Shown: positions 1-14,437 of the stretch, piece by piece
How the letters are laid out: each line of letters starts with the position of its first letter
Position numbering within the stretch: position 1 is the stretch's first letter
DNA from: Candidatus Latescibacterota bacterium
GTDB lineage: Bacteria; Krumholzibacteriota; Krumholzibacteriia; WVZY01; JAKEHA01
Length of the DNA stretch: 64,000 nucleotides
Assembly (NCBI GenBank): GCA_963707635.1
Contig: OY970173.1
Location: forward strand, 2,912,001-2,976,000
Direction: 5' to 3'
Notes under the pieces: generated by a model
The model's input: the letters and a program-made list of their open reading frames with translations, nothing else
Told to the model about the DNA's origin: nothing
Database searches by the model: none
Translations under genes and position numbers: made by a program

Positions 1-3000
1 ATGCGCACCAGGTGCTTGTCTCCCGGGCGTTCCCACCGGTACTCGTAGCCGCCGTCGACGAAATACGACCCCGGCCGGCGCGCGCCCAGGCCCGCGGACA
101 GCGATAGGTATTCTTCGTCTTCGCGACCGGAGAGCGAGGTAAACGTCTCGAAGCCGAGAGTCGCGCTAGTCGCCGGTCCCAGCCGGAGCCTCTGCCGAAT
201 CCCGCTCACCGCACCCATGCGCGCGTCGTCCGCCGCGCGGTCCATCGCGTAGCGCGTGTAGGCCTGGGTGCCGCCGGGCGTGGTTCCTTCGACCCCGGCC
301 GTAATCTGATTGGTCGAGGGGCGGCCGCCCGCCGTGAGGTACTCGTGTGTCGCGATGGCGCGAACGCGCTTCGCGAGCGGCACTGCCAACACGGTCTTCA
401 AGCGGTTCGGGTAGTCGTCGACCACCTGGTCGCCCACGTTCTGCTCCCATGTGGTGGAGATCCCGGCGGTGCCGCGATTGCCGACGGTGATGCCGGTGAG
501 CACCAGGACTCCGTTCGCATCCTGCTGCGGCTCGTCGTGGCGCGCGAAGCGCAGCCCGGCCGACATCTCCAGCAAACGCCGGCGATAGTCGAGCGTGGCC
601 CGGGCGGTCTCGCGCTTTTCGTCGGTGCGCTGGAGTTCGTGCGTGTAGCCGTCGGCATTGAGCGCGAGCGACGGGGACAGGGCGAGGCGGCCGTCGAAGC
701 CCGCCTTGAGGCTCGCGAGCTCGCTGTCCGCCCCGCGGAACGACGGATTCACGAAGCCACCGTCGACGCGCCGCAGGTACATGTCGAGCTTGGAGGCCCC
801 GCGTTGCGCGCCGGCGCCGACCTTGTACGCGTTGCCGTTGCCCGTGAGGTCGTCTTCGCTGTGCGCGAACTCGCCGCTGAATCGAGCGGCGCCCAGACGC
901 GCGTCCCCGTCCACACCGAAGAGCGAGTAGCCGGGCGTGTCGCCCCCGTTCGCCACTGCGGTCACGCCGGCGCGATATCGGCTCCCCTGCACGACGTCGC
1001 CGCGCATGCCGTACAGGTACGCGCCGCTCACACCGGTCTCGGTCTCGTAGGTCACGGCAACGAAATTCGGGTTGAGCTCGCGGTCGGTCACCGCCACCGG
1101 CTCCATGAAGAGAATCGAGCCGTCGTAGGGGTTGATCGTGTAATCGCGCCGGCGAATCATGACCCGGGCCTCGAGGACTTCTTCCGTCTGGTAGCGATCG
1201 CGCGTCTCGACGATCACGCGCTCCGAGTTCTCGACGATCGGGGCGCTCGACAGGTAGTAGAACCCGCTGGTGCCGTCGGCGGGCATCTCGTCGGTGCGCG
1301 TGACGAAATCGGTTTCGGTCACGAACGCGCGCACGCTGTTCGCCCCGCTGGTGAGCGAAGCCGACAACCCCGTCACCACCTGGTGGTAGGTGAGAAACTC
1401 CCCGCGATCGATCGGGGTGGTGAAGTCGCCGTAGCGCAGGTACGATTGTTCGCGGTCGATCGACACGTAGTTGCCGCCGCGCGCGGGCGCGGCGTAGTGC
1501 ACCGACGACGCGTCGCCGTAGATCGGATACTGCTTCTCCGGATCGGGTTGCTTGAGCAACGGGTCGTCGTAACGCTTCTTGGTGTCGAGCCGGGCGGTGA
1601 CCTGGACCCCGCCCGGCGCGGCCCCCTGGACGAAGAGGCGCGACTCGGCTTCCACGTCGAAGCCATCGTGGTAGTTCGCCACCCCCTGCCCGCTGCCGTC
1701 GCCGCGCGTGTCGTACGCACCCATGGTGACGTCGACGATGCCGTCGGCCAGAAACGGACGCTCGGGGTTGACGAATACGACCTCCGTCTCCGCCCGCATT
1801 CCGTCCATCTCCACCGCCACCCGCCCACCGCCGGTCGCGTGCCGTGGCTTCAGGACCAGATTCACGATTCCCTCGCTGGTGGTCGCCTGCAGCCCGCGCT
1901 CGTCGGGCCGCGCGTCCGCGAGCGCGACCAGGTCCGCGCCCTCCGCGACCGTGACGACGATGCCGTCCATCACCGGCAGCCCGAACCCGTCGCGCACCGC
2001 GAAACGCAACGTGGTCGCGGTGTGGCCGTCCGCCGGAACCAGCGCGCGCGCGTCGAGCGGCACGAGCTCCGCCGGTTTCGACGAAAGCGCGACCCGCACG
2101 CTGTCGGACGCCTCGCCTCCGCGCAGCATGGTGGCGTGCGCGATCAGGTCATTCCAACCCGCGCGCACCCGCACGCCGAACCAGGTCGTGGTCTCTTCCT
2201 GGTGCGCGACGTCCACCGTGTGCTGCCCGACGCGGTCCTCGCCGACCAGTTCGTCGTTGACGCGCAACTCCACGCGGCTCCCGAGCGGATGGCGGACACG
2301 CACTGCCACCTGGTCCCGATCCCGCACGACCAAGCCGTCGTTCGGTTCGAGGATGGTGACGAGGCTGGCAGCCCCGGGTGGCGCCGGAGCGGGGTCCCCG
2401 GCGGGGACCAGGGCGATCTTCGCCGGGGCCGCGATTTCGGTCCACGAGAGCGCGTCGAACACCGCGCCCGGCGCGATCGCCGCGGTGCGCACGCCGGGTC
2501 GGACGACGGTCGTGTGCACGGAGCCCGAGTCGCCCGCCGCGGAATCGACCAGGGCAATCGCCGCGGTGACGTCGCGAACCAGGTGCGTATCCGGAGTCGC
2601 CGCGGTGAATGCGACCTGGCAATCGATGGCCCGTCCGCGTCTGAGCGACTCGAAGCTGAAGACGCCGCCGTCGGATGGCAGCGGGACCCGGTCGAGAAGC
2701 GCGCTGACGGTCACGTCCCCGAGCCCTTGCGGAACCTCGACCCGGAGGGTGCCGCGCTGGGTGTGTTCCGAGGTGGTGGTGAATCTCCAGCGCACGGTGG
2801 TGCGCGAGGAATCCGGCAACACCGAGAGATCGCGGACCGCGTGGCCGACGCGCAGCGTCGGGTCCGCGCCGTCGGCGGATGGCGGAATGAAACTCACCTC
2901 GACGCGGCGGTTGAAGCTGCGCCCGTCAGGCGTACCGTTGCCCGCCACCGGCCGGGTGTCCCCGTAACCGCGCACGACGATCCGGTCTCCGTCCACCCCC

Positions 3001-5138
3001 ATCGCGACGAGGGCGTCGCGCACCGCTTCGGCGCGCGCCACCGACAGCTCGTAGTTCGACGGGAAACGCCTGCTGCGCATCGGCGTGTTGTCGGTGTGGC
3101 CTTCGACCAGAGCCGCCCAGCCCGGACGGTCGAGCAGAAAGGCCGCCACCGGTCGCAGCCCCCGGTCCGCACCGACGACCAGCGACGCCTGGCCGAAGTC
3201 GAACTGCGAGCTTGGCAGCGTGAACTCGCCGAGCCGCACCCGTCGCGCGACGCTGACCCGCTCTTCGCACGCGAGCAGCGCGGTACGCGTGAGCGGCGGC
3301 ACCACCGGTTTGCGCAGCGGGAAGGCGACGCGCGCGTGGGCCGGAGCGATCAGGTGCACGAGACGCTCGTTGGGCCGGGGGGCGTGGCCGTCGCCCACAG
3401 CGGGTTCCACCAGTTCGACGCCGGCCGGGAGCGTTCCCTCGTCGAGGCGCACCAGGCGGTAGCCCTCGAACACGTGCGGAATCGAGAAGACTCCCAGCGA
3501 GTCGGTCACCGCGTACTCGCCGCTCTCGAGGTAGACCGAGACGTTCCCCACCCCGGGCTCGCCGGGGTCGCGGTCCCCGTCGCCGTCGTCGTCGATCCAC
3601 ACGTCACCGAGCAGAAAGCCCTCGATGCCAACTTCCTCGTTGTCGATGCGAATGGCGGCGACCACCGGCGCCGTTTCGACCGGATCGCCGGTCACTGCGC
3701 TGCCACGCGCCACCCCCGACACGCTGGCCCAGCCGTTGGGCTCGCGGCTGTTCACCGCGAACTTGACCGAGGTGGTGCGCGTCTCGCCGGGAGCCAGCGA
3801 CCCGACGGCCCACGAGAGCTGGTTCCCCGACCACGCCACCCCGCCCCCGGAGAGAAAATCGAGCGCCGGCGGCACCGACTCGGCGACGCGCACGTTGTCG
3901 ACGCGGATCGAGTCGGTGCGGTTGGTCGCGGTAACCACCATGGTCACGACGTCGCCCAACGACGCGGTCGCCTGCCGGAACGTCTGCTCGAGGCCGATCA
4001 TCGTGCGCGGATCGGGCACCGCCGCCAGGGCGAGCCGGCACGTCGTCCGGTTCGTGACCAGCGTGTCGAGGCGCGACTGCGCGGTGAAATCGAACGCGCG
4101 TATCGCGCCGAGCGCTGTGCGCAGCGGCGTCCCCGGGCTCGACACGACGAGGCGAAGCGACTTGATCTCTCCGGGCGCGAACGCGCCCACCAGGAACTTC
4201 CCGGGTTGCGGAGCCGGCGGGAACGGCACCCCGTTCACGTCCGTGCACACGACGCCGACGCCCGGCGGAAACGCGGCGGACGCGAATACCACCACGCTGT
4301 CGGCGTCGCCGGCGTTCTCGATGTCACCCGCGAAGGTCACGGTGTCATCCAGCACGCCGATGCCGACGGTTGACGCGTCGTCGGGCGATCCCTCGCCCCC
4401 GGGCAACGCGCGCGGGTTTCCCGCCGGCCCGAAGAACACCGCGGACACGAGCGCGCGACTGGTCACACGCACCACGGTCGCATCCGTCACGGGGGCCTGC
4501 GGCGCGAAAGCGGCGGCCGCGACACCGGGATCCCACGCGGAGGTCGCGCGCAGCTCGACGTACGCATCTCCCGCCGGGGCGGGCAGCACGAGTGCGACAT
4601 CCACCGGTGTCGAGAGACCCGCGCCGACCACGAGGAACGACGGGTTGTCTTCGCCCGCATCCAGCCGCCCATTCGCGTTGGCATCGCGGAAGAAGATCAC
4701 CGTCGCGGGCGAGATGGTCGAGGGTGGGAGACTCGTGGTCGACATCGCGACCGAGTCGGGCGCGTTGCCGAGGTTGTCGAGCGACAGCCGGCAGTAGACC
4801 GTATCGAACGGAGCCGCCTGCAGCGCGTACGCGGGCGTTGCCACCGTTCCCGGCGGAGTGATACGCAGGCCAAAGATCGTGAGTACGGGCGTGGAGACGG
4901 TGTTCGAGCCCGTCGCATTCACGTTCCCGGTGTCGGTGAAGACCGTCTGGGCGGTGTTCCGGATGTCGGTACCGCCGGGTGTGACCTGAGCGTGTGCGGG
5001 TTTCGAAGGCCAAAAAGCCAGCACGAACAGCAGCGCGAACAAGACGTAACGCGTTGCAGAAAAACGAAAAACGGCGAGTCCCCCCGCCGCGTTTACTGCC
5101 CGCCGCCAGTCGAAATTCTGCCGCGCTAGAGCCTTCAT
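1..5138 (-). CDS. Very large outer-membrane protein (>=1712 aa, 3' end outside window): signal peptide, N-terminal TPGGTDIRNTA extension, Ig/DUF11-like domains, SdrD-B-like domain, OmpA-C peptidoglycan-binding domain, C-terminal putative beta-barrel
   Basis: Hand translation from ATG 5138 (MKALARQNF...FALLFVLAFWPSKPAHA-QVTPGGTDIRNTA); the frame is still open at position 3 (...KHLVR). Motifs: GDVWIDDDGDGDRDPGEPGV (SdrD-B-like), VEGHTDN...SNYELSVARAEAV...GYGDTRP...NRRVEV (OmpA-C), YPIYGDAS...YGDF and alternating beta-strand patterns downstream. Absent from the ORF track because there is no stop; the + strand ORF 345..4373 is its antisense shadow. Start codon uncertain. Confidence 0.85.
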   Translation of the reverse strand, partial: MKALARQNFDWRRAVNAAGGLAVFRFSATRYVLFALLFVLAFWPSKPAHAQVTPGGTDIRNTAQTVFTDTGNVNATGSNTVSTPVLTIFGLRITPPGTVATPAYALQAAPFDTVYCRLSLDNLGNAPDSVAMSTTSLPPSTISPATVIFFRDANANGRLDAGEDNPSFLVVGAGLSTPVDVALVLPAPAGDAYVELRATSAWDPGVAAAAFAPQAPVTDATVVRVTSRALVSAVFFGPAGNPRALPGGEGSPDDASTVGIGVLDDTVTFAGDIENAGDADSVVVFASAAFPPGVGVVCTDVNGVPFPPAPQPGKFLVGAFAPGEIKSLRLVVSSPGTPLRTALGAIRAFDFTAQSRLDTLVTNRTTCRLALAAVPDPRTMIGLEQTFRQATASLGDVVTMVVTATNRTDSIRVDNVRVAESVPPALDFLSGGGVAWSGNQLSWAVGSLAPGETRTTSVKFAVNSREPNGWASVSGVARGSAVTGDPVETAPVVAAIRIDNEEVGIEGFLLGDVWIDDDGDGDRDPGEPGVGNVSVYLESGEYAVTDSLGVFSIPHVFEGYRLVRLDEGTLPAGVELVEPAVGDGHAPRPNERLVHLIAPAHARVAFPLRKPVVPPLTRTALLACEERVSVARRVRLGEFTLPSSQFDFGQASLVVGADRGLRPVAAFLLDRPGWAALVEGHTDNTPMRSRRFPSNYELSVARAEAVRDALVAMGVDGDRIVVRGYGDTRPVAGNGTPDGRSFNRRVEVSFIPPSADGADPTLRVGHAVRDLSVLPDSSRTTVRWRFTTTSEHTQRGTLRVEVPQGLGDVTVSALLDRVPLPSDGGVFSFESLRRGRAIDCQVAFTAATPDTHLVRDVTAAIALVDSAAGDSGSVHTTVVRPGVRTAAIAPGAVFDALSWTEIAAPAKIALVPAGDPAPAPPGAASLVTILEPNDGLVVRDRDQVAVRVRHPLGSRVELRVNDELVGEDRVGQHTVDVAHQEETTTWFGVRVRAGWNDLIAHATMLRGGEASDSVRVALSSKPAELVPLDARALVPADGHTATTLRFAVRDGFGLPVMDGIVVTVAEGADLVALADARPDERGLQATTSEGIVNLVLKPRHATGGGRVAVEMDGMRAETEVVFVNPERPFLADGIVDVTMGAYDTRGDGSGQGVANYHDGFDVEAESRLFVQGAAPGGVQVTARLDTKKRYDDPLLKQPDPEKQYPIYGDASSVHYAAPARGGNYVSIDREQSYLRYGDFTTPIDRGEFLTYHQVVTGLSASLTSGANSVRAFVTETDFVTRTDEMPADGTSGFYYLSSAPIVENSERVIVETRDRYQTEEVLEARVMIRRRDYTINPYDGSILFMEPVAVTDRELNPNFVAVTYETETGVSGAYLYGMRGDVVQGSRYRAGVTAVANGGDTPGYSLFGVDGDARLGAARFSGEFAHSEDDLTGNGNAYKVGAGAQRGASKLDMYLRRVDGGFVNPSFRGADSELASLKAGFDGRLALSPSLALNADGYTHELQRTDEKRETARATLDYRRRLLEMSAGLRFARHDEPQQDANGVLVLTGITVGNRGTAGISTTWEQNVGDQVVDDYPNRLKTVLAVPLAKRVRAIATHEYLTAGGRPSTNQITAGVEGTTPGGTQAYTRYAMDRAADDARMGAVSGIRQRLRLGPATSATLGFETFTSLSGREDEEYLSLSAGLGARRPGSYFVDGGYEYRWERPGDKHLVR

Positions 5139-5152
5139 CGCATATAACACGT

Positions 5153-5205
5153 TCGGCCGGCGCACGCGGGGGAGCCGTGTGGGCTCCACCCGCATGCGCG
5201 GCCGA
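5153..5205 (-). terminator. Strong intergenic stem-loop between the fibre-subunit gene and the outer-membrane protein gene
   Basis: Pairings tcggcc/ggccga, gcgca/tgcgc, gcggg/cccgc and ggagcc/ggctcc around a 5-nt loop; the C/A mismatch becomes a G-U pair in the minus-strand RNA. No clear U-tail, so it may be a stabiliser or attenuator. Confidence 0.55.
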
Positions 5206-5234
5206 CGTAAGGGGCCGCTATCGAAAGAAAGCGG

Positions 5235-7935
5235 CTACTGAATCCGGACTGTGAACCCGACCCCGGAGGTCGAGCTCGCACCGGCCAGGAGACTCCCCGT
5301 GAACACCCAGCGCACGTTGGTCACGTTCGCGTCGTATCCCGCCGGAGCTCCCCCGCCGCCGCTCGCCGGCGCGTAGGTCCAGGTGGCTCCGCTGTCGTCG
5401 GAATACTCGATCGCGATGGCGGTGACCGACGCCGGCGCCGTGCCGCTCGTCGCCGAACCCACCTGGAATTGCGTCCAGGTCGGAACCGCGTCGTAGATGG
5501 CGATCGTCGTGAGCGTCGAGCTGCCGAGGTTCTGGTAGTCCACGGTGTATGCGAGATCGGTCCCCGGCGCCTGAGCGCCCGCCGGGCTCACCGCCTTCGT
5601 CAACACCAGGTTGCCCGCCACGATGGTCGTGACGTCGGTGGCGTTGTCGGAGGCGAGGGTGACCTGACCGGTCGCCGTGAGCACCCCGATCTCGACCGTC
5701 CCCACCGTCGCCCCGGCCGGCACCGTGAGGCGCGCGGTCACGCTCGCACTCGCGCCCGGCGCGAGAGTCACGCTCGAAATCGGCGTGCTCGTCACGTCGA
5801 GGAACACGTAGCTCCAGCCCTGCGAGGAGACGTAGGTCAGGTCGAAGGTGTCACCGACATTGCCGTTGTTGGTCACCGTGTGCGCATACGTGATGGTCCC
5901 GCCGGCGGTGGTGTTGCCCGCGTTGTCGGGGTCGAAGAGCACCGACGCCAGCGTGTTCACCGTCACCGTGTTGGCGATGGTGTCGCTTTGCGTCGCGTTG
6001 ACCGTCGACGTGGCCGTAAACGAGGTTCCGTTGACGCCCGGCGCGGTGCCCGCGGGCACCGCCACGCGCGCGATGAGGTTGGTCTCGGCTCCGGAAGCAA
6101 CCACACCCGTCGAGGTGATCGGCGACACTTCGCCGGCGTCGAGGATGCCGTTGCCGTTCGCGTCGAGATAGAACACGACCGTCCAACCCGCGGGGACGGA
6201 CGAGGACAGCGTGAAGTTGTCGCTCGAACCGCCGCCGTTGATCACGTCGAGCGCGAAGTCGACCGACGCGCCCGGGTTGGTGTTCTGATTCACCGACGCG
6301 TTGTTGGTGGTTCCCGCCGCGCCGTCATAGTTGCCGATGTCCACCGTCGCGGGCAGTACCGCGTCGATGCGATCGGTGGTCAGGTTGTCCTCGGCCGGGG
6401 TGTTCGCGGACTGCGCGCGCACCACGGCGGCGAACGGGCCACCGGCCCCCTGCGAACCGGGAATGACCACCCGCACGACGATGTCGATCGACGCTCCCGT
6501 CGCGAGCGGGCCCACGTCGACGTTGCCGTCGAAGTCGGAATCCGAAAGCGGCGTGATGCCGTCATTGTGATAGAACAGCACCGACCACGAGCCGGGCACC
6601 GTCGACGAGCCATCGAGCACCACGTTGACCGCGTCGTTCGTGTTGCCGTCGTTGCGAATCGTGTTGGTGAAGTCGACCGACGTGTTGGCGTACGCGCTGG
6701 CGACACTCTGCAGGTCGTCGTCGTAGTTCGGCGGCGTTCCGGCGTCGGGGACGCCGGCCGGGCCGATCACCACTCCCGCGAGGATGCCGACGGTCACCGG
6801 CGCGTTGTTCGACGTGACGATGGTCGGGTTCGGCGTCACCACGTTGTTGTCGACGTAGGCCAGCGCCGCGGTGTTGTTCAACACGCCCGGCGTCATCCCC
6901 GCGACCACCGTGACCTGGTACGAGAACGAGTAGCTCTGCCCCGGCACGATGGCGCCGTTGGTCACGTACGCCACCGCGATGTCGCCGAAACCCGCCGCCA
7001 GCGACCAGTTCCACGTCTCAGGGCTCCCGGCGGTCGAGCTTCCGCTGGGCAGGTACAGGACCGTCCCGCCCGCGGGCGAGCCCGTCGGCGCCCCGAAGAC
7101 CGGGAGTGGATTGCCCGAGCCCGGATTCAGCGGGATCACGTCGTACATCAGAACACCCGTGAGGGCGACCGACCCGACGGTGACGCCGTTGGCGTTGTTG
7201 GTTCCGGAGTTCGATGCCCGTGAAGGTGTAGCTGATCTGGTCGCCGTCGTAGACCAGCGCGGGGGCACCCGTGAGGTTGGCCGTCATGACGGCGTCGTCC
7301 ACCACCGTGGTGCGGTGGTAGTTGCGCGTATCGATCTGACCCGCGTCACCCACGGACGTGCCCTGCACGCCGACGTAGGCGAGCTGGCCCGCGGTCGCGG
7401 TGCCCGGCACCGCGTAGGTGACGATAAGGCTCACCGACGTGCTGGCCGCGACCGGACCGAGGACGCCCGGTACCCCGCCGACGCTGATCGCCGGCTCGCC
7501 GCCGTCGACCACGCCGTTGCCGTTGATGTCGTGATAGATCGACACGTTCGCCAGCGCGATGGTCATGGTCGTGTTGACCGCATCGACCAGCGGCGCCAGC
7601 GTGTAGCTGTCGTTGTCGTTACCGGTGTTGGTGAGCGTATAGCTGTAGAACAGCGTCTGTCCGCCGATCGCGTTCTGGCTCATCGCCGGCGTGACCGGTG
7701 GCGTCTCTCCCGAATCGTCGGGAAGGATCGAGATGCCGTAGACCGGCAGCACCACTGTAATGACTTCGTTCGAAAGCGCGGTGTAGCTGTTGCCGACCAG
7801 GTCCTCGTAGGTCGCGGACGCGCGATTGCGAATCTGCGTCCCCGCCGGCGTCGTCTGCGCGAACGCAGCCGCCACGGAGAGCACGAGCACGAGGGTCAGG
7901 ACGAGCGGGAGGATCAGAAGGTGTCTGGTTTTCAT
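5235..7935 (-). CDS. Secreted multi-Ig-domain DUF11 (conserved repeat domain) protein, ~899 aa after correcting a +1 frameshift at 7217-7219; candidate fibre subunit
   Basis: ORFs 7018..7935 (signal peptide MKTRHLLILPLVLTLVLVLSVAAAFA-QTTPAGTQIRNRASATY) and 5235..7268 join as ...QISYTFT(A)SNSGTNN... if one G of ACGGGCA is removed. Repeated Y/FxxTxxNxGNxxDxxxL modules, DxNGNGxxDxGE Ca-binding-type loops, two DUF11-like domains. SD AGGAGG overlaps the upstream stop codon. Confidence 0.85.
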
Positions 7936-7947
7936 CTTCGGTTCCTC

Positions 7948-8433
7948 CTACTTGACCGTGGCCCGGTACGAGAACGTGATCTCGTCTTCGGGCTTCAGGC
8001 CGCCGGACAGCGTCCAGCGAATGTGGGTGATCATGTCCGGCGTCGCGTCCGCCCAGACCTCACGACCGTCGGCCGCCGCTTTCTTGAAGCGAACGGGCCA
8101 GGCGTGGAAGGTCTTGCCGCTGTCGATGCTGAACTGCACCGAACCTGCAGCCGGAGCCTTCGCGGTCTTTTCGACGTACTGGACGCCGGCGGGAACCGGG
8201 TCGACGATTGACACGTTGTGGACGGCCTCGGCGCCACCGTTGGCGTACGTCAGCCGGTATTCGATGACGTCCTGCGGACGGGCTTCGTCTGCAGGCAGGT
8301 AGACTTCCTCGCCGCGCTCGCCGACGATGACCTTCCGGGCTTCGATGGTGCCCGTGACAGGACCGGCGGCAGTGGCAGCGAGCGACGTGATCAGTCCGCC
8401 AACAAGGGCGAACAGGAAGAAAACGCGACGCAA
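7948..8433 (-). CDS. Small secreted single DUF11-like domain protein (161 aa), C-terminally truncated domain
   Basis: TTG start at 8433 with AGGAGG 7 nt upstream; signal peptide; PQDVIEYRLTYANGG...VSIVDPVPAGVQYV...THIRWTL...FSYRATVK-stop. Confidence 0.85.
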   Translation of the reverse strand: MRRVFFLFALVGGLITSLAATAAGPVTGTIEARKVIVGERGEEVYLPADEARPQDVIEYRLTYANGGAEAVHNVSIVDPVPAGVQYVEKTAKAPAAGSVQFSIDSGKTFHAWPVRFKKAAADGREVWADATPDMITHIRWTLSGGLKPEDEITFSYRATVK

Positions 8434-8845
8434 GGTGGAACCTCCTGAGTATCGAGAAGCCCACGCATCGGCGCGGGCGCACTCCTCCCATGCAAACCCG
8501 CGCGTCGGGCGCAGGCGCAACTTCTCGCGGGAGCCCGGGGGCAAGGGACGTTCCAGTCGTGGCCGGAAAGGGCGGGATGTTCCCGATGGAAGCGGATGAG
8601 GGAGGAATGTGGCGTCGCGGCGCGGCTTACGCGCGGTGACGGAGTGGCCGTCGGTGCCGCCACCGGGCGCATGACGGACTATCGCGCCCGCGAATGGTTG
8701 TCACTCCGCAATGCGGGCGCAGGGGGCCTTGCAATGTGCAATTCTTCCCAGTCGGGGGTGGCGCGCCAGGTGAGTCGGGACCAGCACGTCGTTCTCCGAG
8801 GAGCGCCGGGGGTCAACCTACAATATTCTAACGGCTTATGAATTG

Positions 8846-8875
8846 TTGAAAATTATACATAGCCTGTCCTATATT
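8846..8875 (+). promoter_or_regulatory. Sigma70-like promoter for the two-component operon
   Basis: TTGAAA-N18-TATATT in an AT-rich patch; ATG 8882 follows 6 nt after the -10 box. Confidence 0.5.
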
Positions 8876-8881
8876 CTGCAC

Positions 8882-9961
8882 ATGCCGGGCTCGCCTTCCA
8901 AACGCTGGCAGGTGGTCACACTCGTGGTGATCGGCGCCGCCACCGTATCGTTCCACTACGGCTTCTTGCTCCCTCGATCCATCGGGCATGGCAGCCTCGT
9001 CCACGTCATCCACGGGCGCCTGTGTTATGTGCCCATCATTCTGGCGGCGATCTGGTTCGGGGTACGAGGCGGACTCGCGCTTTCGCTCTCGATCACGGCG
9101 CTCACCCTGCCCTACCCGCGCCTGCGCGGGATTACCGACCACCACACGTTGATCGGCGAATACACCGAAATGGTGTTCTACGTGGCGATCGGCCTGATGA
9201 CCGGTGTCCTGATCGAACGCCAGTGGCGCGAGCGGGCGCGCGGCGAAGCCCTCCAGCGCGAGCTCGCGCGCCGCGAGCGCCTCTCGTCGCTCGGGCAGAT
9301 GGCCGCCGGCCTCGCGCACGAGATCAAGAATCCGCTCGGGTCCATCCAGGGCGCGGCCGAGATTCTGGGCGACGACGCGCCGGCCGATTCCCGCAGGCGG
9401 GAGCTGTTCGAGATCCTGCGCAAGGAATCGAAGCGGCTCGGGACCGTGGTCGACGACTTTCTCACCTTCGCGCGCCCGCGTCCGCTGTCGCTCTCTCCGC
9501 TCGACCTCGGTGCGGTGGCGGAGCGCGCCGCCGCGCAGATGAACATCGACGCCTCCGCGCGCGGCATCACCATCGAGCTCCAGCGCGCGCCCGACCTGCC
9601 CCGGGTGGCCGGCGACACCGAGCGGCTCCACCAGGTATTCTTGAATCTGCTCTTGAACGCGCTCGCCACCAGCGCGGACGGGGGCCGGGTGGTGGTGTCC
9701 TCGTTTCCCGCCGAGCGCGACGGCGCCGCGTGCGCCGCCGTGTCGGTGCGCGATTTTGGCTCCGGCATTGCGCCCGACGCACTCCCGCGCGTGTTCGACC
9801 CGTTCTTCACCACGCGGGAAAACGGGGTCGGCCTGGGCCTCTCGATATCGCACACCATTGTGCAGGAACACGGCGGCTGGATCGACGTCGACAGCGCGCC
9901 GGGTGCCGGCACCACGGTCACCGTCGTCCTCCCCGTCGATCGCACTCGCCATGGCGCATAG
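8882..9961 (+). CDS. Membrane sensor histidine kinase (NtrB/ZraS-like)
   Basis: Several TM helices, H-box LAHEIKNPL, N-box QVFLNLLLNA, DFGSGI, FDPFFTT, GVGLGL. Confidence 0.9.
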   Translation: MPGSPSKRWQVVTLVVIGAATVSFHYGFLLPRSIGHGSLVHVIHGRLCYVPIILAAIWFGVRGGLALSLSITALTLPYPRLRGITDHHTLIGEYTEMVFYVAIGLMTGVLIERQWRERARGEALQRELARRERLSSLGQMAAGLAHEIKNPLGSIQGAAEILGDDAPADSRRRELFEILRKESKRLGTVVDDFLTFARPRPLSLSPLDLGAVAERAAAQMNIDASARGITIELQRAPDLPRVAGDTERLHQVFLNLLLNALATSADGGRVVVSSFPAERDGAACAAVSVRDFGSGIAPDALPRVFDPFFTTRENGVGLGLSISHTIVQEHGGWIDVDSAPGAGTTVTVVLPVDRTRHGA

Positions 9962-11303
9962 TCGCATCCTGCTCGTGGATGACGACGAGAGCATCCGCAA
10001 GGTCCTCGGCTATATGCTCGAGGAGGCCGGCTACGCGGTCGAGTCCGCGCCGGGAGCCGACGCCGGGCTGCGACTCGCGGCCGAGCGGCGCCCCGACCTG
10101 GTCTTGAGCGACATCAAGATGCCGGGCAAGGACGGGCTCGAGCTGTTGCGCGAGCTCCGGGCTTTCGATCCGTCGATCCCGGTGATCATCCTCACCGCGT
10201 TCGGCACGGTGGGGACCGCCGTCGAGGCGATGAAGCACGGCGCGTCCGACTACCTCACCAAACCGATCGCGCGCGACGATCTATTGCTGACGGTGGCGAA
10301 GACGCTCAAGCTCCACCGCCTCGAGGCGGAAAACGAGGATCTGCGGGAGACGCTCCGCGACCGCTTCCGCTTCGAGAGCATGGTCGGGCTTTCGCCGGCG
10401 ATGACAGAGGTGTTCGCCACGCTGCGCAAGGTGGCGACCACCGAAGCCACCGTGCTAATTACCGGAGAGAGCGGGACGGGCAAAGAGCTCATCGCGCGCG
10501 CGATCCATTTCAACAGCCCGCGGCGCTCGCAGCGCATGGTCACGATCAACTGTGCCGCGATTCCGCACGACCTGCTCGAGAGCGAGCTGTTCGGTCACGT
10601 GCGCGGGTCGTTTACCGGCGCGATTCGTGACAAAGTCGGCAAGTTCGAACAGGCGCACGGCGGCACGCTCTTTCTCGACGAGATCGGGGCCACGCCGCTG
10701 GTGCTGCAGGTGAAGCTGCTGCGCGCCCTGCAGGAGCGGGAGGTCGAGCGGGTTGGCGGCGACGCGCCCATCCAGGTCGACGTGCGCATCGTCGCCGCCA
10801 CCAATCGGGCGCTGGCGACGCTGGTCGCCGCGGGCGAATTTCGCGAGGACCTCTTCTACCGGCTCAACGTCGTGCCGGTCCGGGTGCCGCCGCTGCGCGA
10901 GCGCGCGGGCGACCTCCCGCTCCTGGTCCGCCACTTCCTGGCGAAGTTCGCCGACGGCAAGGTCACCCTGACCCCGGAGGCGCTCGCGGCCCTCGAGCGT
11001 TATCGCTGGCCGGGGAACGTCCGCGAGCTGGAGAACTTCTGCGAGCGCATGGCGCTGATGCGCTCCCGCGACGTCATCGACGCCGCAGCCGTCGCCGCCG
11101 AGCTGGCGACGCTGGAGCGCGAGGCTCCGGCGGCGATCGGAGCCACCCTGCACGAAATCGAGCGCACCGCCATCGTCGAGGCGCTGCGCGCCAGCGGCTG
11201 GAATCGGTCCCGCGCCGCCCGCCGGCTCGGCGTCGCGCGCCACATCCTGCTCTACCGCATGAAGAAGTTCGACATTCGCGACGAGGGCGAGTCGGTGCGT
11301 TGA
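9951..11303 (+). CDS. Sigma54-dependent response regulator (NtrC/ZraR family; REC-AAA+-HTH)
   Basis: ILLVDDD...DIKMPG receiver; [32 protein letters not shown]-terminal Fis-type HTH. Confidence 0.95.
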
Positions 11304-11313
11304 GGGTGGTGGC

Positions 11314-11398
11314 GGGATGCACTCCCTCTACCGCCGTCCTCCCGCGCACAAAATTGAAATGCGCGGCTGCGGATTGGCGGTGCGAGGGAGTGCATCCC
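11314..11398. repeat. 85-nt long hairpin / REP-doublet-like inverted repeat
   Basis: Perfect 15-bp inverted repeat GGGATGCACTCCCTC (11314-11328) / GAGGGAGTGCATCCC (11384-11398), with further internal pairing (accgcc/ggcggt, ccgcgca/tgcgcgg). Confidence 0.7.
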
Positions 11399-11418
11399 AC
11401 CTTGAGGCAGAGCCCCTC

Positions 11419-11434
11419 TGGCAACCGCGGTGCG
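11419..11434 (+). promoter_or_regulatory. Possible sigma54 -24/-12 promoter
   Basis: TGGCAACCGCGGTGCG has GG-N10-GC spacing; 70 nt upstream of ATG 11504 and directly downstream of a sigma54 activator gene. Confidence 0.35.
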
Positions 11435-11503
11435 TTCGTGCTAACCTCCCCAACTTGCGCGCGCGGCAGCGTGCGTGATCGTGTTTCCAGCCAGGGAGTG
11501 AAC

Positions 11504-14437
11504 ATGCGGCGCGCAGCGATCATCGCGGCATCTCTTCTTGCGGGCGCCGTCCCCGTCCACGGCGCTGACTACTTCCAACAGTTCGTGCATACCACCATCC
11601 GGGTGACACTCGACACCGAGCGCAAGTGGATTTCGGGCACGGAATCCATTCTCTACGTCAATAACTCGCCGGACACGCTGCGCCAATTCTATCTGCACCT
11701 CTATCCCAACGCCTTTCGCGACAACGACACCGCGTTCATGAAGAACCGGAACCGCCAGTACAACTGGACGCTCCTGGGCCTCCCGGATGCGAACCGAAGC
11801 TGGCTCGACCTTTCCAACGCGCGCGTGGACGGGACGCCGGTGGACGTGCGCGTCGACGACACCATCGCGAGCATGGCGTTGCCGCGGCCGCTCGCCCCGG
11901 GCGACTCCATGCGGGTCGAGTTCGCGTTCGACGGGAAAGTGCGCCAGGCGTTCGACCGCGCCGGCTACCGCGGCGACCACTACGACTTCGCCCAGTGGTA
12001 CCCGAAGGTGGTCGTGTACGACGAGCGCGGGTTCCACCCCGACAAGTTCCAGGCCGGCGAGTTCTACGGCGAATTCGGGACCTTCGACGTCCACATCGAG
12101 CTGCCGCAGCGTTTCGTGGTGGTCGCGACCGGCGTCGTCGAGAGCGGCGACCCCGGATGGGACTACAACCCGCCGCACCGGAAGCGCGGCGCGAAGACGG
12201 GCGCCGGCAAGACGCCGCCCGCGTCGGGGAGCAAGACCATCCACTTCCACGCCGAGAAGGTGCACGACTTCGCGTGGTGCGCGGATCCGACCTACGTCGT
12301 CCAGGACACGCTCCTCGACGGCATCGAGATCCGAAGCGCGTATCGGCGCCGGAGCGCGTCGACCTGGGAGGACTCGACCCTCGCGCACGCGATCCGCGCC
12401 GTCACCTGGCTGAACCGTCGCGTCGGCAAGTACCCGTATCCGCACATCACCGTCGCCGAGATGTTGCGTATGGGCGGGATGGAATACCCGATGCTCGCGA
12501 TGGACGGCCGCGCGACCGAGGGGCTCGCCTTGCACGAGATCGGCCACATGTACTTCTACGGGATACTAGCCAACAACGAGCGCACGGAGGCGTGGCTCGA
12601 TGAAGGCTTCACCACCTTCCAGACCCGGTGGTATCAGGAGCGGCACTACGGCCCGTGGGGCGACACCAGCCGGCGGAACTGGTACCAGCGCATCACCCCG
12701 CAATACCGGCTGTGGGAAGAGTACCAGCGGGACATCGTGGACCTGCACCGCCGTGGTTACGGCGAGCGGGTGTCGTACCGGGCAGAGGACTACCTCCACT
12801 CGTACCGGGTGAACGTGTATCAGAAGGCGGCCCTCGTCGTCCGCGCGCTGCGCTTCGCCGCCGGCGACGACGCGTTCGACCAGATTCTGCACCGCTACTA
12901 CGATGAGTGGCAGTTCAAGCACGTGAACGAGGCGCGTTTCCGCGCGGTGTGCGAGGACGTCGCGAAGCGCGACCTGTCCCGCCAGTTCGAGCAGTGGCTG
13001 CACACCAAGAAGGCGGTCGACTACGCGCTGACGCGCGTGCACTCGACGCCGGCCGCGAACGGCGTGTCGACCGACGTGGAGATCCAGCGCATCGGCGAGC
13101 TGTACTGTCCGATCGAGGTCGCCTTCACCCTCCCCGACGGGCGCGTCGAGAAGCGCCGCTTCGACGCGCGCGATCGCACGATCCGCCAGAAGGTGGAGTT
13201 GCCGGCAAAGCCGGTCCGAACCCAGATCAACCCGGACAACGAGATCATGGATATCGATCCATCGAATAACGTGACGCCCCGCCAGCGCGACTTCCAGATC
13301 GACTGGCCCAACAACTACTACTATCCCGCCGACGCCTACCAGATCCGCCATCGTCCCGCGATCTGGTACAACGACGTGGACGGCGCGAAGGTCGGCTACC
13401 ATTTGTCCGGGAGTCTCCAGGGCTGGAAGCACCGCGCGAACCTCGGCGTCTACTACGGCGTCGAGAGCGGCGAAACGGATTTTTCAGCGTCGCTGGACGA
13501 GCCGCTGCGCCTGCTGGGGAGCAACGCGACCCTGCACGCCTCGGGCTACAAGATGGAGGGCCGCGCGGACTGGAAGCTCGACCTGCGCCTGACCCGACGG
13601 TCGCATCTGCTCGACCCGCCCACGCACGAGTTGTTGATCGGCTACGGATACCACGAATTGCGCGACCCGCGGTACCTGACCAGCCCGGAGATCTACGACA
13701 CGCTGCAGGCGGACTCCGGCCCGTACTTCGGCTACACCGTCGACCCCCAGCTCGACATCGCGTCGATTCGCTTCGAGGCGAATCTGACGATGGGAAACCA
13801 GTGGTTCGCGGGCGAATACGACTACGAGCGTTTCGCGGCGAGTCTCACCCTGCAGTCGCGACCGAGCGTCGTGAAGGTGGATGCGCGACTGCGGGGGTTC
13901 GCGGGGTTCGCGGGAGGCGGCACCGCCACCTCGCGGAAGTTCAACCTGGCGGGGGCGGGACCGCTGCGCGCCGAGGAGCGATTCTGGCTCCGCTCACCGG
14001 GCGCCGTGCCGGAGGGCCTGCACTATCTGGAGCCCGGCGACGGCAACCTGCGCGGATACGCGGCGGGGACGTTCGGCGTGAACCAGCTGATGGCGCTGAA
14101 CGCCGAACTGGGAGGTCCGCTCGCGCTCCCGGGAATCAAGAAACTGCAGAAGTGGATCGGAACCCCGTCGCTGTACGGGTTCTACGACGTGGGATGGATT
14201 TTCGACAGCGTGAACCCGATCTCGACGAGCGCGCGGGTCGGGGCGCTGGTGGACGGCGGAATCCTGGACGACGTGCTCCAGGACGCGGGACTCGGGATTC
14301 GCTCCGCGGTGGCGTGGCCGTTCTGGAACTTCACCTGGCGTTTCGACGTGCCATTCTATGTAACGAATCCGGAAGTCAACGCCGAGAGCGAAACCATCGA
14401 CTGGCGGTACCTCTTCAGTCTGACGGCGACGTTCTAG
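11504..14437 (+). CDS. Secreted M1-family zinc metallopeptidase with C-terminal putative outer-membrane beta-barrel region
   Basis: Signal peptide; GGMEYP, HEIGH-x18-E (WLDEGF), YQKA; C-terminal ~370 aa of amphipathic strands with NLRGY motif, ending YLFSLTATF. Confidence 0.85.

Follow-up and report, generated by a model that had tools for sequence, protein, structure and literature searches.

The first 8,433 positions of a 64,000-nucleotide stretch of a Candidatus Latescibacterota bacterium (contig OY970173.1, positions 2,912,001-2,976,000; hereafter the window) carry three co-oriented genes, i, ii and iii, all on the minus strand, and a fourth gene, iv, lies on the same strand beyond the window. 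Named homologues assign this uncultured diderm organism to the Krumholzibacteria. We propose that these four genes form a self-contained pilus pathway, in which subunits complete one another's CLIPPER/DUF11 domains head to tail, an interchain Lys-Asn bond locks them together, and the barrel of iii exports the fibre. We put the probability of this mechanism as a whole at roughly 60%; complementation in trans, taken alone, is held with higher confidence.

The initial annotation of this DNA, which described a three-gene operon for a donor-strand, isopeptide-type surface fibre, was partly confirmed in what it observed, and its interpretation is supported and sharpened by the present analysis. The three genes are present as described: i encodes a lone DUF11-like protein of 161 amino acids (aa), with PF01345 and TIGR01451 both above cut-off; i and ii end abruptly, with FSYRATVK and VGFTVRIQ, respectively; mature ii and mature iii open with a common motif (TTPAGTQIRNRA and VTPGGTDIRNTA); and iii contains DUF11 and OmpA domains, a sub-threshold SdrD_B match and a beta-rich C-terminus (Table 1). 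The annotation missed gene iv, which likely encodes the tip and whose start overlaps the stop of iii, as well as a frameshift in ii and an isopeptide triad that is shared out between subunits. Inspection of the open reading frames (ORFs) of the locus revealed no extra gene among i-ii-iii-iv. Signal peptides were assigned by eye, and the N-termini resemble ordinary Sec signals. Type IV and type V pili use class III or lipoprotein signal peptides, with PilB/PilC or protease processing.

The internal domain 2 of ii (residues ~213-384) is an intact CLIPPER domain, and its model adopts the CnaA fold that isopeptide-bearing domains of pilins have (BcpA, Z 13.5, root-mean-square deviation (rmsd) 2.2, 128 aligned; SpaD, Z 12.2). 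In hhalign comparisons with domain 2, the C-terminal acceptor of ii covers positions 1-133 and then stops (P 99.1, E 1e-18), protein i covers positions 10-133 (P 97.2), and the donor, which is the 40-residue start of mature ii, covers positions 132-174 (P 90.8, E 1e-6). The C-terminal domain of iv likewise matches the first part (1-133) of an intact internal copy. The donor profile gave no hhalign alignment with either the acceptor or protein i (P below 1). The terminal domains of i, ii and iv, which end ahead of the Asn strand, are not complete CLIPPER domains. On these alignments, the start motif shared by ii and iii is assigned as the missing end of the DUF11/CLIPPER isopeptide domain. Proteins i, iii and iv exceed the Pfam cut-off for PF01345, whereas the second half of ii reaches 21.5 bits in the window (cut-off 24.6) and 36.9 in an intact relative. 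The profiles of ii comprised 89 distant homologues, which were the 750-1200-aa proteins among 150 listed, the 61 outside this size range being excluded.

In the accessible text describing a CLIPPER crystal structure, a Lys-Asn bond is reported with an Asp nearby (PMC12617251). These three residues occur within one chain, at the same profile positions of domain 2, in 67 of the 89 homologues; the Asn is present in 67 of the 69 homologues having the Lys and in 6 of the 20 without it, the latter including poor alignments. Across the ends of ii, 74 of the 89 distant representatives have a divided triad, in which the N-terminal hairpin bears the Asn and the C-terminal domain the Lys and Asp/Glu (N-K-D in 69, N-K-E in 5). 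The Lys, K779, is invariant in all 17 relatives compared and is the sole Lys of the mature reference protein. A Lys together with Asp or Glu was found in 42/44 ii-type, 31/35 acceptor-only and 29/60 i-type proteins, the acceptor-only class including a few fragments of ii. The donor/acceptor logic proposed at the outset is upheld both by the profile alignments and by the conserved residues, and a self-made Lys-Asn isopeptide bond likely locks the chains together.

A sequence search of the PDB with ii returned no match. The model of a relative ~80% identical to ii (predicted local distance difference test score, pLDDT, 83) comprises six confident domains, the acceptor being confidently modelled, whereas the donor forms a low-confidence hairpin (pLDDT below 50) on a low-confidence linker. 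Protein ii is predicted from this model to be a six-domain chain with a free N-terminal hairpin. Invariant DxNxNG..D/.GE loops are found at residues ~135-146 and ~590-601 of ii and recur in iii and iv; we take them to resemble calcium-binding loops.

The length of ~899 aa given earlier for ii holds when the gene is read across a frameshift, and does not hold for the sequence as assembled, in which the 2701 bases from 7935 to 5235 are broken near 7214-7219 into ORFs of 305 and 677 aa. Three contigs from one sample that cover 7214-7219 have one base fewer there, and ii is a single frame of ~900 aa in all 19 relatives fetched whole; for these two reasons, the extra base is probably an assembly error. 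A second-run contig also spans the site, with no deletion listed at 7214.

The two halves of the CLIPPER domain are unevenly distributed among the four proteins: i and iv are acceptor only, ii has both halves, and iii is donor only, which argues for iv as the tip, ii as the shaft and iii as the base. No donor motif was found in iv, which is likely a tip adhesin. Protein i, which likely serves as a chaperone or cap, has two hairpin-like insertions and no adhesin domain, and each operon has a single small gene for it in Krumholzibacteria, Marinimicrobia, Thermus, Deinococcus ficus, cyanobacteria and both Proteobacteria. Both Lys34 and Asp78 are present in protein i of this genome, and the pair is relaxed across its family: the Lys occurs in 47/60 members and Lys with Asp in 29/60, including this genome and most Marinimicrobia, with Arg replacing the Lys in 10 and Gly replacing the Asp in 16 of the 60. 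In this scheme, the fibre would run from iv at the tip, through repeated ii, to iii at the base, with i as a reversible cover or cap. Searched with the donor profile, 54 of 120 iii homologues gave a match within their first 160 residues (49 with the Asn), compared with none of 120 shuffled sequences.

The C-terminal end of iii is predicted to form an outer-membrane barrel of very large size that contains an inserted domain. Polar and hydrophobic residues alternate over residues 1149-1922, and the model of residues 1041-1936 (63 sequences, pLDDT 80, predicted template modelling score 0.66) consists of an immunoglobulin (Ig) domain followed by 7 long strands and, after an inserted beta domain, by another 31, ~38 strands in total by our own count. 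As had been anticipated for this region, the model shows consecutive long antiparallel strands, and the nearest solved folds, taken as for the other models from the VIA search, are membrane barrels, with invasin or intimin for the Ig domain. Pfam gave no match in the barrel region of iii and weak barrel matches in a few of 25 relatives. The Atlas clusters of the barrel are unnamed, with usher (0.84) and SprA (0.85) serving as leads only. In PDB sequence searches, iii retrieved only OmpA-like domains among the best 60 of 116 matches, and the barrel retrieved one match, judged to be due to chance. An identity of iii as TssL or MotB was rejected, these names stemming from the OmpA-like domain alone at scores under the cut-offs.

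Within its own genome, the barrel profile detected one other protein, SprA. This SprA/Sov homologue (2077 aa; L107:5804-12034, corresponding to G000:C1 ~1295800-1302030, plus strand) scores 491.5 bits against TIGR04189 (cut-off 200) and has 879 homologues, several labelled Krumholzibacteria or Latescibacterota; its presence indicates that the lineage likely has a type IX-like system. In a profile-profile comparison, residues ~1246-1458 of iii, which comprise the inserted domain and the strands around it, aligned to residues ~617-857 of SprA (197 columns, P 97.6, E 3e-12), and the other segments of iii gave no significant alignment with SprA profiles (P 3.7 and below 1). SprA was absent from the 50 listed fold matches of the barrel model, and none of 25 barrel-family members matched TIGR04189 or PF14349. 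A genome search with PF14349 yielded neither a match nor a control match despite the presence of SprA, so that such searches can miss. The aligned segment may mean that the two barrels have a common ancestor, or that they have a small domain in common with generic strands after it.

The barrel family also ends giant adhesin-like proteins in other genomes (L031/L032, G037:C4; L034, G050:C27; L036, G047:C113), whose open frames extend over 6790, 4157 and more than 2322 aa, the first of which supplied 26 tandem complete CLIPPER repeats. In Phyllobacterium (L106:197-14682), a barrel annotated as a TonB-dependent receptor adjoins a 3550-aa DUF11 protein. The barrel family may provide a general route by which CLIPPER adhesins are exported or displayed.

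A search with iii gave partial matches in 44 of 61 genomes, its own included, and stretches were fetched for 21 of the 37 other strong matches and for all 6 weak ones. The expectation that the genes are conserved together was borne out, the set being found in several phyla. The order i-ii-iii was present in 19 of the 21 relatives, the contigs of the remaining 2 ending first, and an acceptor-bearing or iv-like gene lay downstream in 20 of the 21. The 6 weak matches were single large proteins with no match to i or ii. The same parts were found in Marinimicrobia, Lentisphaeria-labelled contigs, Thermus thermophilus HB8, D. ficus, two cyanobacteria and Pacificitalea, and, in broken form, in Acinetobacter haemolyticus and D. 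radiodurans, i being undetected in the latter. The protein DR_B0037 appears in a mass-spectrometry table of PMC5382914; its identity as the ii homologue not being established, no weight is given to that entry. In Thermus, Deinococcus, cyanobacteria and Marinimicrobia, iii is divided into two genes, one for the N-terminal part, which bears the donor wherever the profile detects it, and one for the barrel part. The barrel gene was present in the operons fetched far enough, and no OmpA-like domain was detected in the barrel proteins of Thermus or D. ficus.

Several variants were observed among these operons. In Marinimicrobia (L076-L098), the operon opens with an acceptor-only gene of ~600 aa, usually with Glu for Asp; ii, at ~550-640 aa, is shorter, and several additional DUF11 repeats are present in the donor-only protein. 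Genes in several frames were seen for ii on A. haemolyticus plasmid p4 (L103:7609-10443), for the donor-only gene and barrel on D. radiodurans MP1 (L104:15335-21316), and for iii in three metagenome assemblies (L015, L039, L040); these may reflect decay or sequencing error. A distant barrel gene at L029:6979-19999 (G056:C6) has two small ORFs before it or overlapping it, which end in acceptor-like strands (LFTVSVQ and VRFQVRVN), and a large protein of secreted appearance after it; this arrangement may be a divergent operon whose subunits are small.

In the proposed pathway, the subunits would cross the inner membrane by Sec, and i would cover the donor hairpins reversibly in the periplasm and deliver the subunits to iii. 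The tip iv would be exported first, and each incoming ii would put its hairpin into the preceding subunit, yielding iv-(ii)n-iii, with the Lys of each acceptor bonding spontaneously with the donor Asn on the next chain. The barrel of iii would export and hold the fibre, its donor hairpin would hold or terminate the base, and its OmpA-like domain, where present, would tie the machine to peptidoglycan. The likely job of such a fibre would be adhesion.

Several observations weigh against this pathway. Conservation of the Asn alone is weak evidence, since domain 2 of the Krumholzibacteria has lost its Lys (Leu in 13, Met in 4 of 17) with the Asn still there. The donor Asn is present in 43 of the 44 ii-type proteins, a class that was itself defined using the donor profile, and the homologues counted throughout are kin rather than independent cases. 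The donor profile gave no significant alignment (P 0.14) with the 26 near-identical intact CLIPPER repeats of one giant adhesin. The Asn of the iii donor is present in 8 of 18 Krumholzibacteria sequences and is Ser or Gly in the other 10, so that anchoring cannot always be covalent; moreover, this donor lies N-terminal to a periplasmic OmpA-like domain and must therefore either act in the periplasm or pass through the barrel. The ushers FimD (Z 13.0, rmsd 11.9, 360 aligned) and PapC (Z 12.7, rmsd 8) are tied with Tom40 and OmpM1 as fold matches of the barrel model, and these usher matches have rmsd values of 7-12; the modelled barrel may not be closed. Finally, members of the same barrel family are fused to giant adhesins, or lie next to them, where i and ii are absent, so that the barrel may serve to anchor rather than to assemble.

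The last of these observations also bears on an alternative in which this donor/acceptor chemistry yields a short adhesin whose composition is fixed (for example iv-ii-iii, or a few copies of ii), that is, a fibrillar adhesin in pieces. The subunits are large multi-domain chains, and the barrel family serves single giant CLIPPER adhesins, either fused (2077 to 6790 aa) or adjacent (Phyllobacterium). However, ii has both halves together with the strictest triad, the sequence offers no stop to ii-ii repetition, and conservation of the donor is higher in ii than in iii; a fixed adhesin is considered unlikely on these points. Tiling and triad alone are silent on whether one chain or two are involved, and the N-terminal hairpin of ii could in principle turn back and fill the C-terminal domain of the same molecule; the product would be a closed, stable monomer, as in a circular permutation, and no chain. 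We regard such self-completion as highly improbable, because acceptor-only i and iv and donor-only iii are sensible only in trans, and the best monomer model leaves the hairpin at pLDDT below 50 beside a confident acceptor.

It is also quite improbable that the subunits self-polymerise outside the cell after general export by a type IX or type II system, with iii only a wall-tied anchor displaying its donor hairpin. Operons of this kind are present in Thermus, Deinococcus, cyanobacteria and Proteobacteria, in which type IX secretion is not known to occur. Proteins i and ii stop at the last acceptor strand, no type IX sorting family was among the NCBIfam matches of i and ii (iv was outside that scan), the barrel gene accompanies the operons fetched far enough, and ~38 strands would far exceed the need of an anchor. 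These points stand against the SprA translocon encoded in the genome (TIGR04189, 491.5 bits) and the polymerisation of BsaA without an usher, as given in the accessible part of its report (10.1101/2024.11.04.621531), both of which would favour general export. A variation on the proposed pathway itself, which we hold to be doubtful, makes i a minimal cap or initiator at the distal end, as an alternative to iv, and covalently fixed where Lys and Asp are kept. Like iv, i is acceptor only, and its retention of the Lys in 47/60 and of Lys with Asp in 29/60, this genome included, fits a covalent cap as well as a chaperone, a further point against the role given to i above; conversely, one of the two residues is replaced in 31/60, and i is a single small gene per operon with two hairpin-like insertions and no adhesin domain.

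The layout of the proposed pathway can be compared with that of the chaperone-usher pili (type 1 and P), which have a FimH tip, a FimA rod, a FimI/PapH terminator, a FimC/PapD chaperone and a FimD/PapC usher. In those pili, and as predicted here, an incomplete Ig domain is completed by the N-terminus of the next subunit (here by profile tiling and model), an acceptor-only tip and a two-sided shaft are combined with a donor-bearing base, and the barrel has a domain inserted after its first strands. In contrast, the donor here is a two-stranded hairpin, the subunits have six domains, the isopeptide triad is split, the candidate chaperone i is an acceptor rather than a strand donor, and the base donor lies within the barrel protein or a neighbouring gene. 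The usher barrel has 24 strands, whereas ~38 are predicted here. The statement that sortase, usher and PapD-like genes are lacking, made earlier from the window, extends to the genome: no match was found for usher PF00577 in iii, in 25 barrel homologues or in the 96%-complete genome (Escherichia coli control positive), nor in the genome for PapD-like chaperone PF00345 (controls positive) or sortase PF04203 (three controls positive). The sortase pili (BcpA, SpaD, RrgB) share the CnaA isopeptide fold with domain 2 of ii, whereas here the host is diderm, there is no LPXTG tail and the C-termini end in a beta strand. SprA/Sov, described in the accessible text as a 36-stranded barrel of the type IX translocon (PMC10994853), resembles iii in ~200 aligned residues and in predicted barrel size, and differs in that the rest of iii gives no significant alignment and no other type IX genes lie in the operon.

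The CLIPPER/DUF11 domains (PF01345) of fibrillar adhesins share with the present proteins the family match, the Lys/Asp/Asn arrangement and a CnaA-like fold; those covered in the accessible part of PMC12617251 are complete domains with intrachain bonds, whereas here the terminal domains are cut and the Asn is on the other chain. In Clostridium perfringens BsaA, as far as the accessible text of 10.1101/2024.11.04.621531 goes, an Asn in the donor strand at the N-terminus bonds a receiver Lys with catalysis by a receiver acid, as supported by mutation. The pairing of a donor Asn with a receiver Lys and acid is the same here, by conservation only (74/89), whereas BsaA, on the same text, belongs to the TasA family in a monoderm host, with a SipW peptidase, a single donor strand and no outer-membrane barrel; no Pfam match to the TasA family or SipW was found in i, ii, iii or an iv relative. 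The archaeal thread Saci_0406 combines donor-strand complementation with an intersubunit isopeptide bond and no sortase, but its Asn57, according to the accessible part of the paper (PMC9715654), bonds the N-terminal amine of subunit n+2, with no Lys, in an archaeon and without a barrel. Four further candidates were rejected: Tat-fimbriae, in which the "DUF11" of the accessible text is DUF1102; CryoSeek TLP-1, described in the available text as a small single-domain subunit with an n+4 donor; CryoSeek TLP-IPT, described there as glycan-linked; and, for ii, FapC, with 15 NCBIfam bits vs 195, mostly from the signal peptide. The proposed system has a chaperone-usher-like layout and a BsaA-like lock, is a member of neither group, and draws its parts from no described pilus family.

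Table 1. Positions of the operon features (window coordinates unless given as G000:C1)
Feature	Position	Strand	Remarks
Gene i: signal peptide and one incomplete CLIPPER/DUF11 domain (acceptor only)	7948..8433	-	TTG start; likely chaperone or cap
Gene ii: signal peptide, donor hairpin, five Ig-like domains, C-terminal incomplete CLIPPER domain	5235..7935	-	3' end at 5235; likely shaft
Donor beta-hairpin of ii, residues ~27-66, TTPAGTQIRNRASATY...SNEVITVV	7740..7857	-	Predicted isopeptide Asn37 at 7827-7825
Extra base shifting the frame of ii	7214..7219	-	Probably assembly error
Acceptor domain of ii	5238..5625	-	Lys codon from 5597, Asp codon from 5492; stops where the donor hairpin would start
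Gene iii, window part: donor hairpin, Ig-like domains, DUF11 402-485, SdrD_B-like 530-584, OmpA-like 665-763	1..5195	-	Begins at or below 5195; whole gene G000:C1:2911385-2917195, 1936 aa counted from first ATG, true start uncertain
Gene iii, later part: invasin-like Ig 1041-1144, predicted barrel 1149-1922, inserted beta domain ~1297-1386		-	
Donor hairpin of iii, VTPGGTDIRNTAQ...SNTVSTPV	4870..4985	-	Asn80 at 4958
Gene iv: signal peptide, Ig-like repeats, C-terminal incomplete CLIPPER domain (Lys1208, Asp1242), donor motif absent	G000:C1:2907426-2911385	-	1319 aa

A gap of 400 bases separates the operon from a sensor histidine kinase and a sigma-54-type response regulator (window 8843-11303), which are transcribed away from it. 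An A+T-rich patch lies at ~8820-8880, and a promoter scan gave a single weak minus-strand site (8852-8825), to which no weight is given. The region 11300-14437 encodes an M1-type aminopeptidase-like protein (HEIGH motif) whose long beta-rich C-terminus is barrel-like by eye.

No published description of the operon was found in a literature search that reached few subscription papers and no supplements. The nearest mention is that of Anabaena All3289 as perhaps an anchored surface protein, in the accessible part of PMC9705863, its membership in this system not being established. Because an intact five-gene copy (TTH_RS10905-RS10925) lies on the T. thermophilus HB8 megaplasmid, the proposed pathway is directly testable. 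A bolder reading, which we hold tentatively and at somewhat less than even odds, is that of an undescribed, widespread class of diderm pili, with multi-domain tag-and-catcher subunits, a decoy-acceptor chaperone and folded threading through a ~38-stranded barrel larger than SprA, with which it would have a module or ancestry in common. If true, this class would connect type IX secretion with a system found across many phyla; the barrel is predicted to be among the largest outer-membrane barrels, with a possible link to the type IX translocon. The split isopeptide pair, if real, would be a natural one useful in protein engineering. A role would also follow for thousands of proteins at present annotated as DUF11, OmpA family or hypothetical: the ii profile matches 6616 representatives at 50% identity, many via repeated Ig domains only, and 860 at E below 1e-30. 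If the proposed mechanism is true, it would constitute a covalently locked, sortase-free pilus pathway in Gram-negative-type bacteria.

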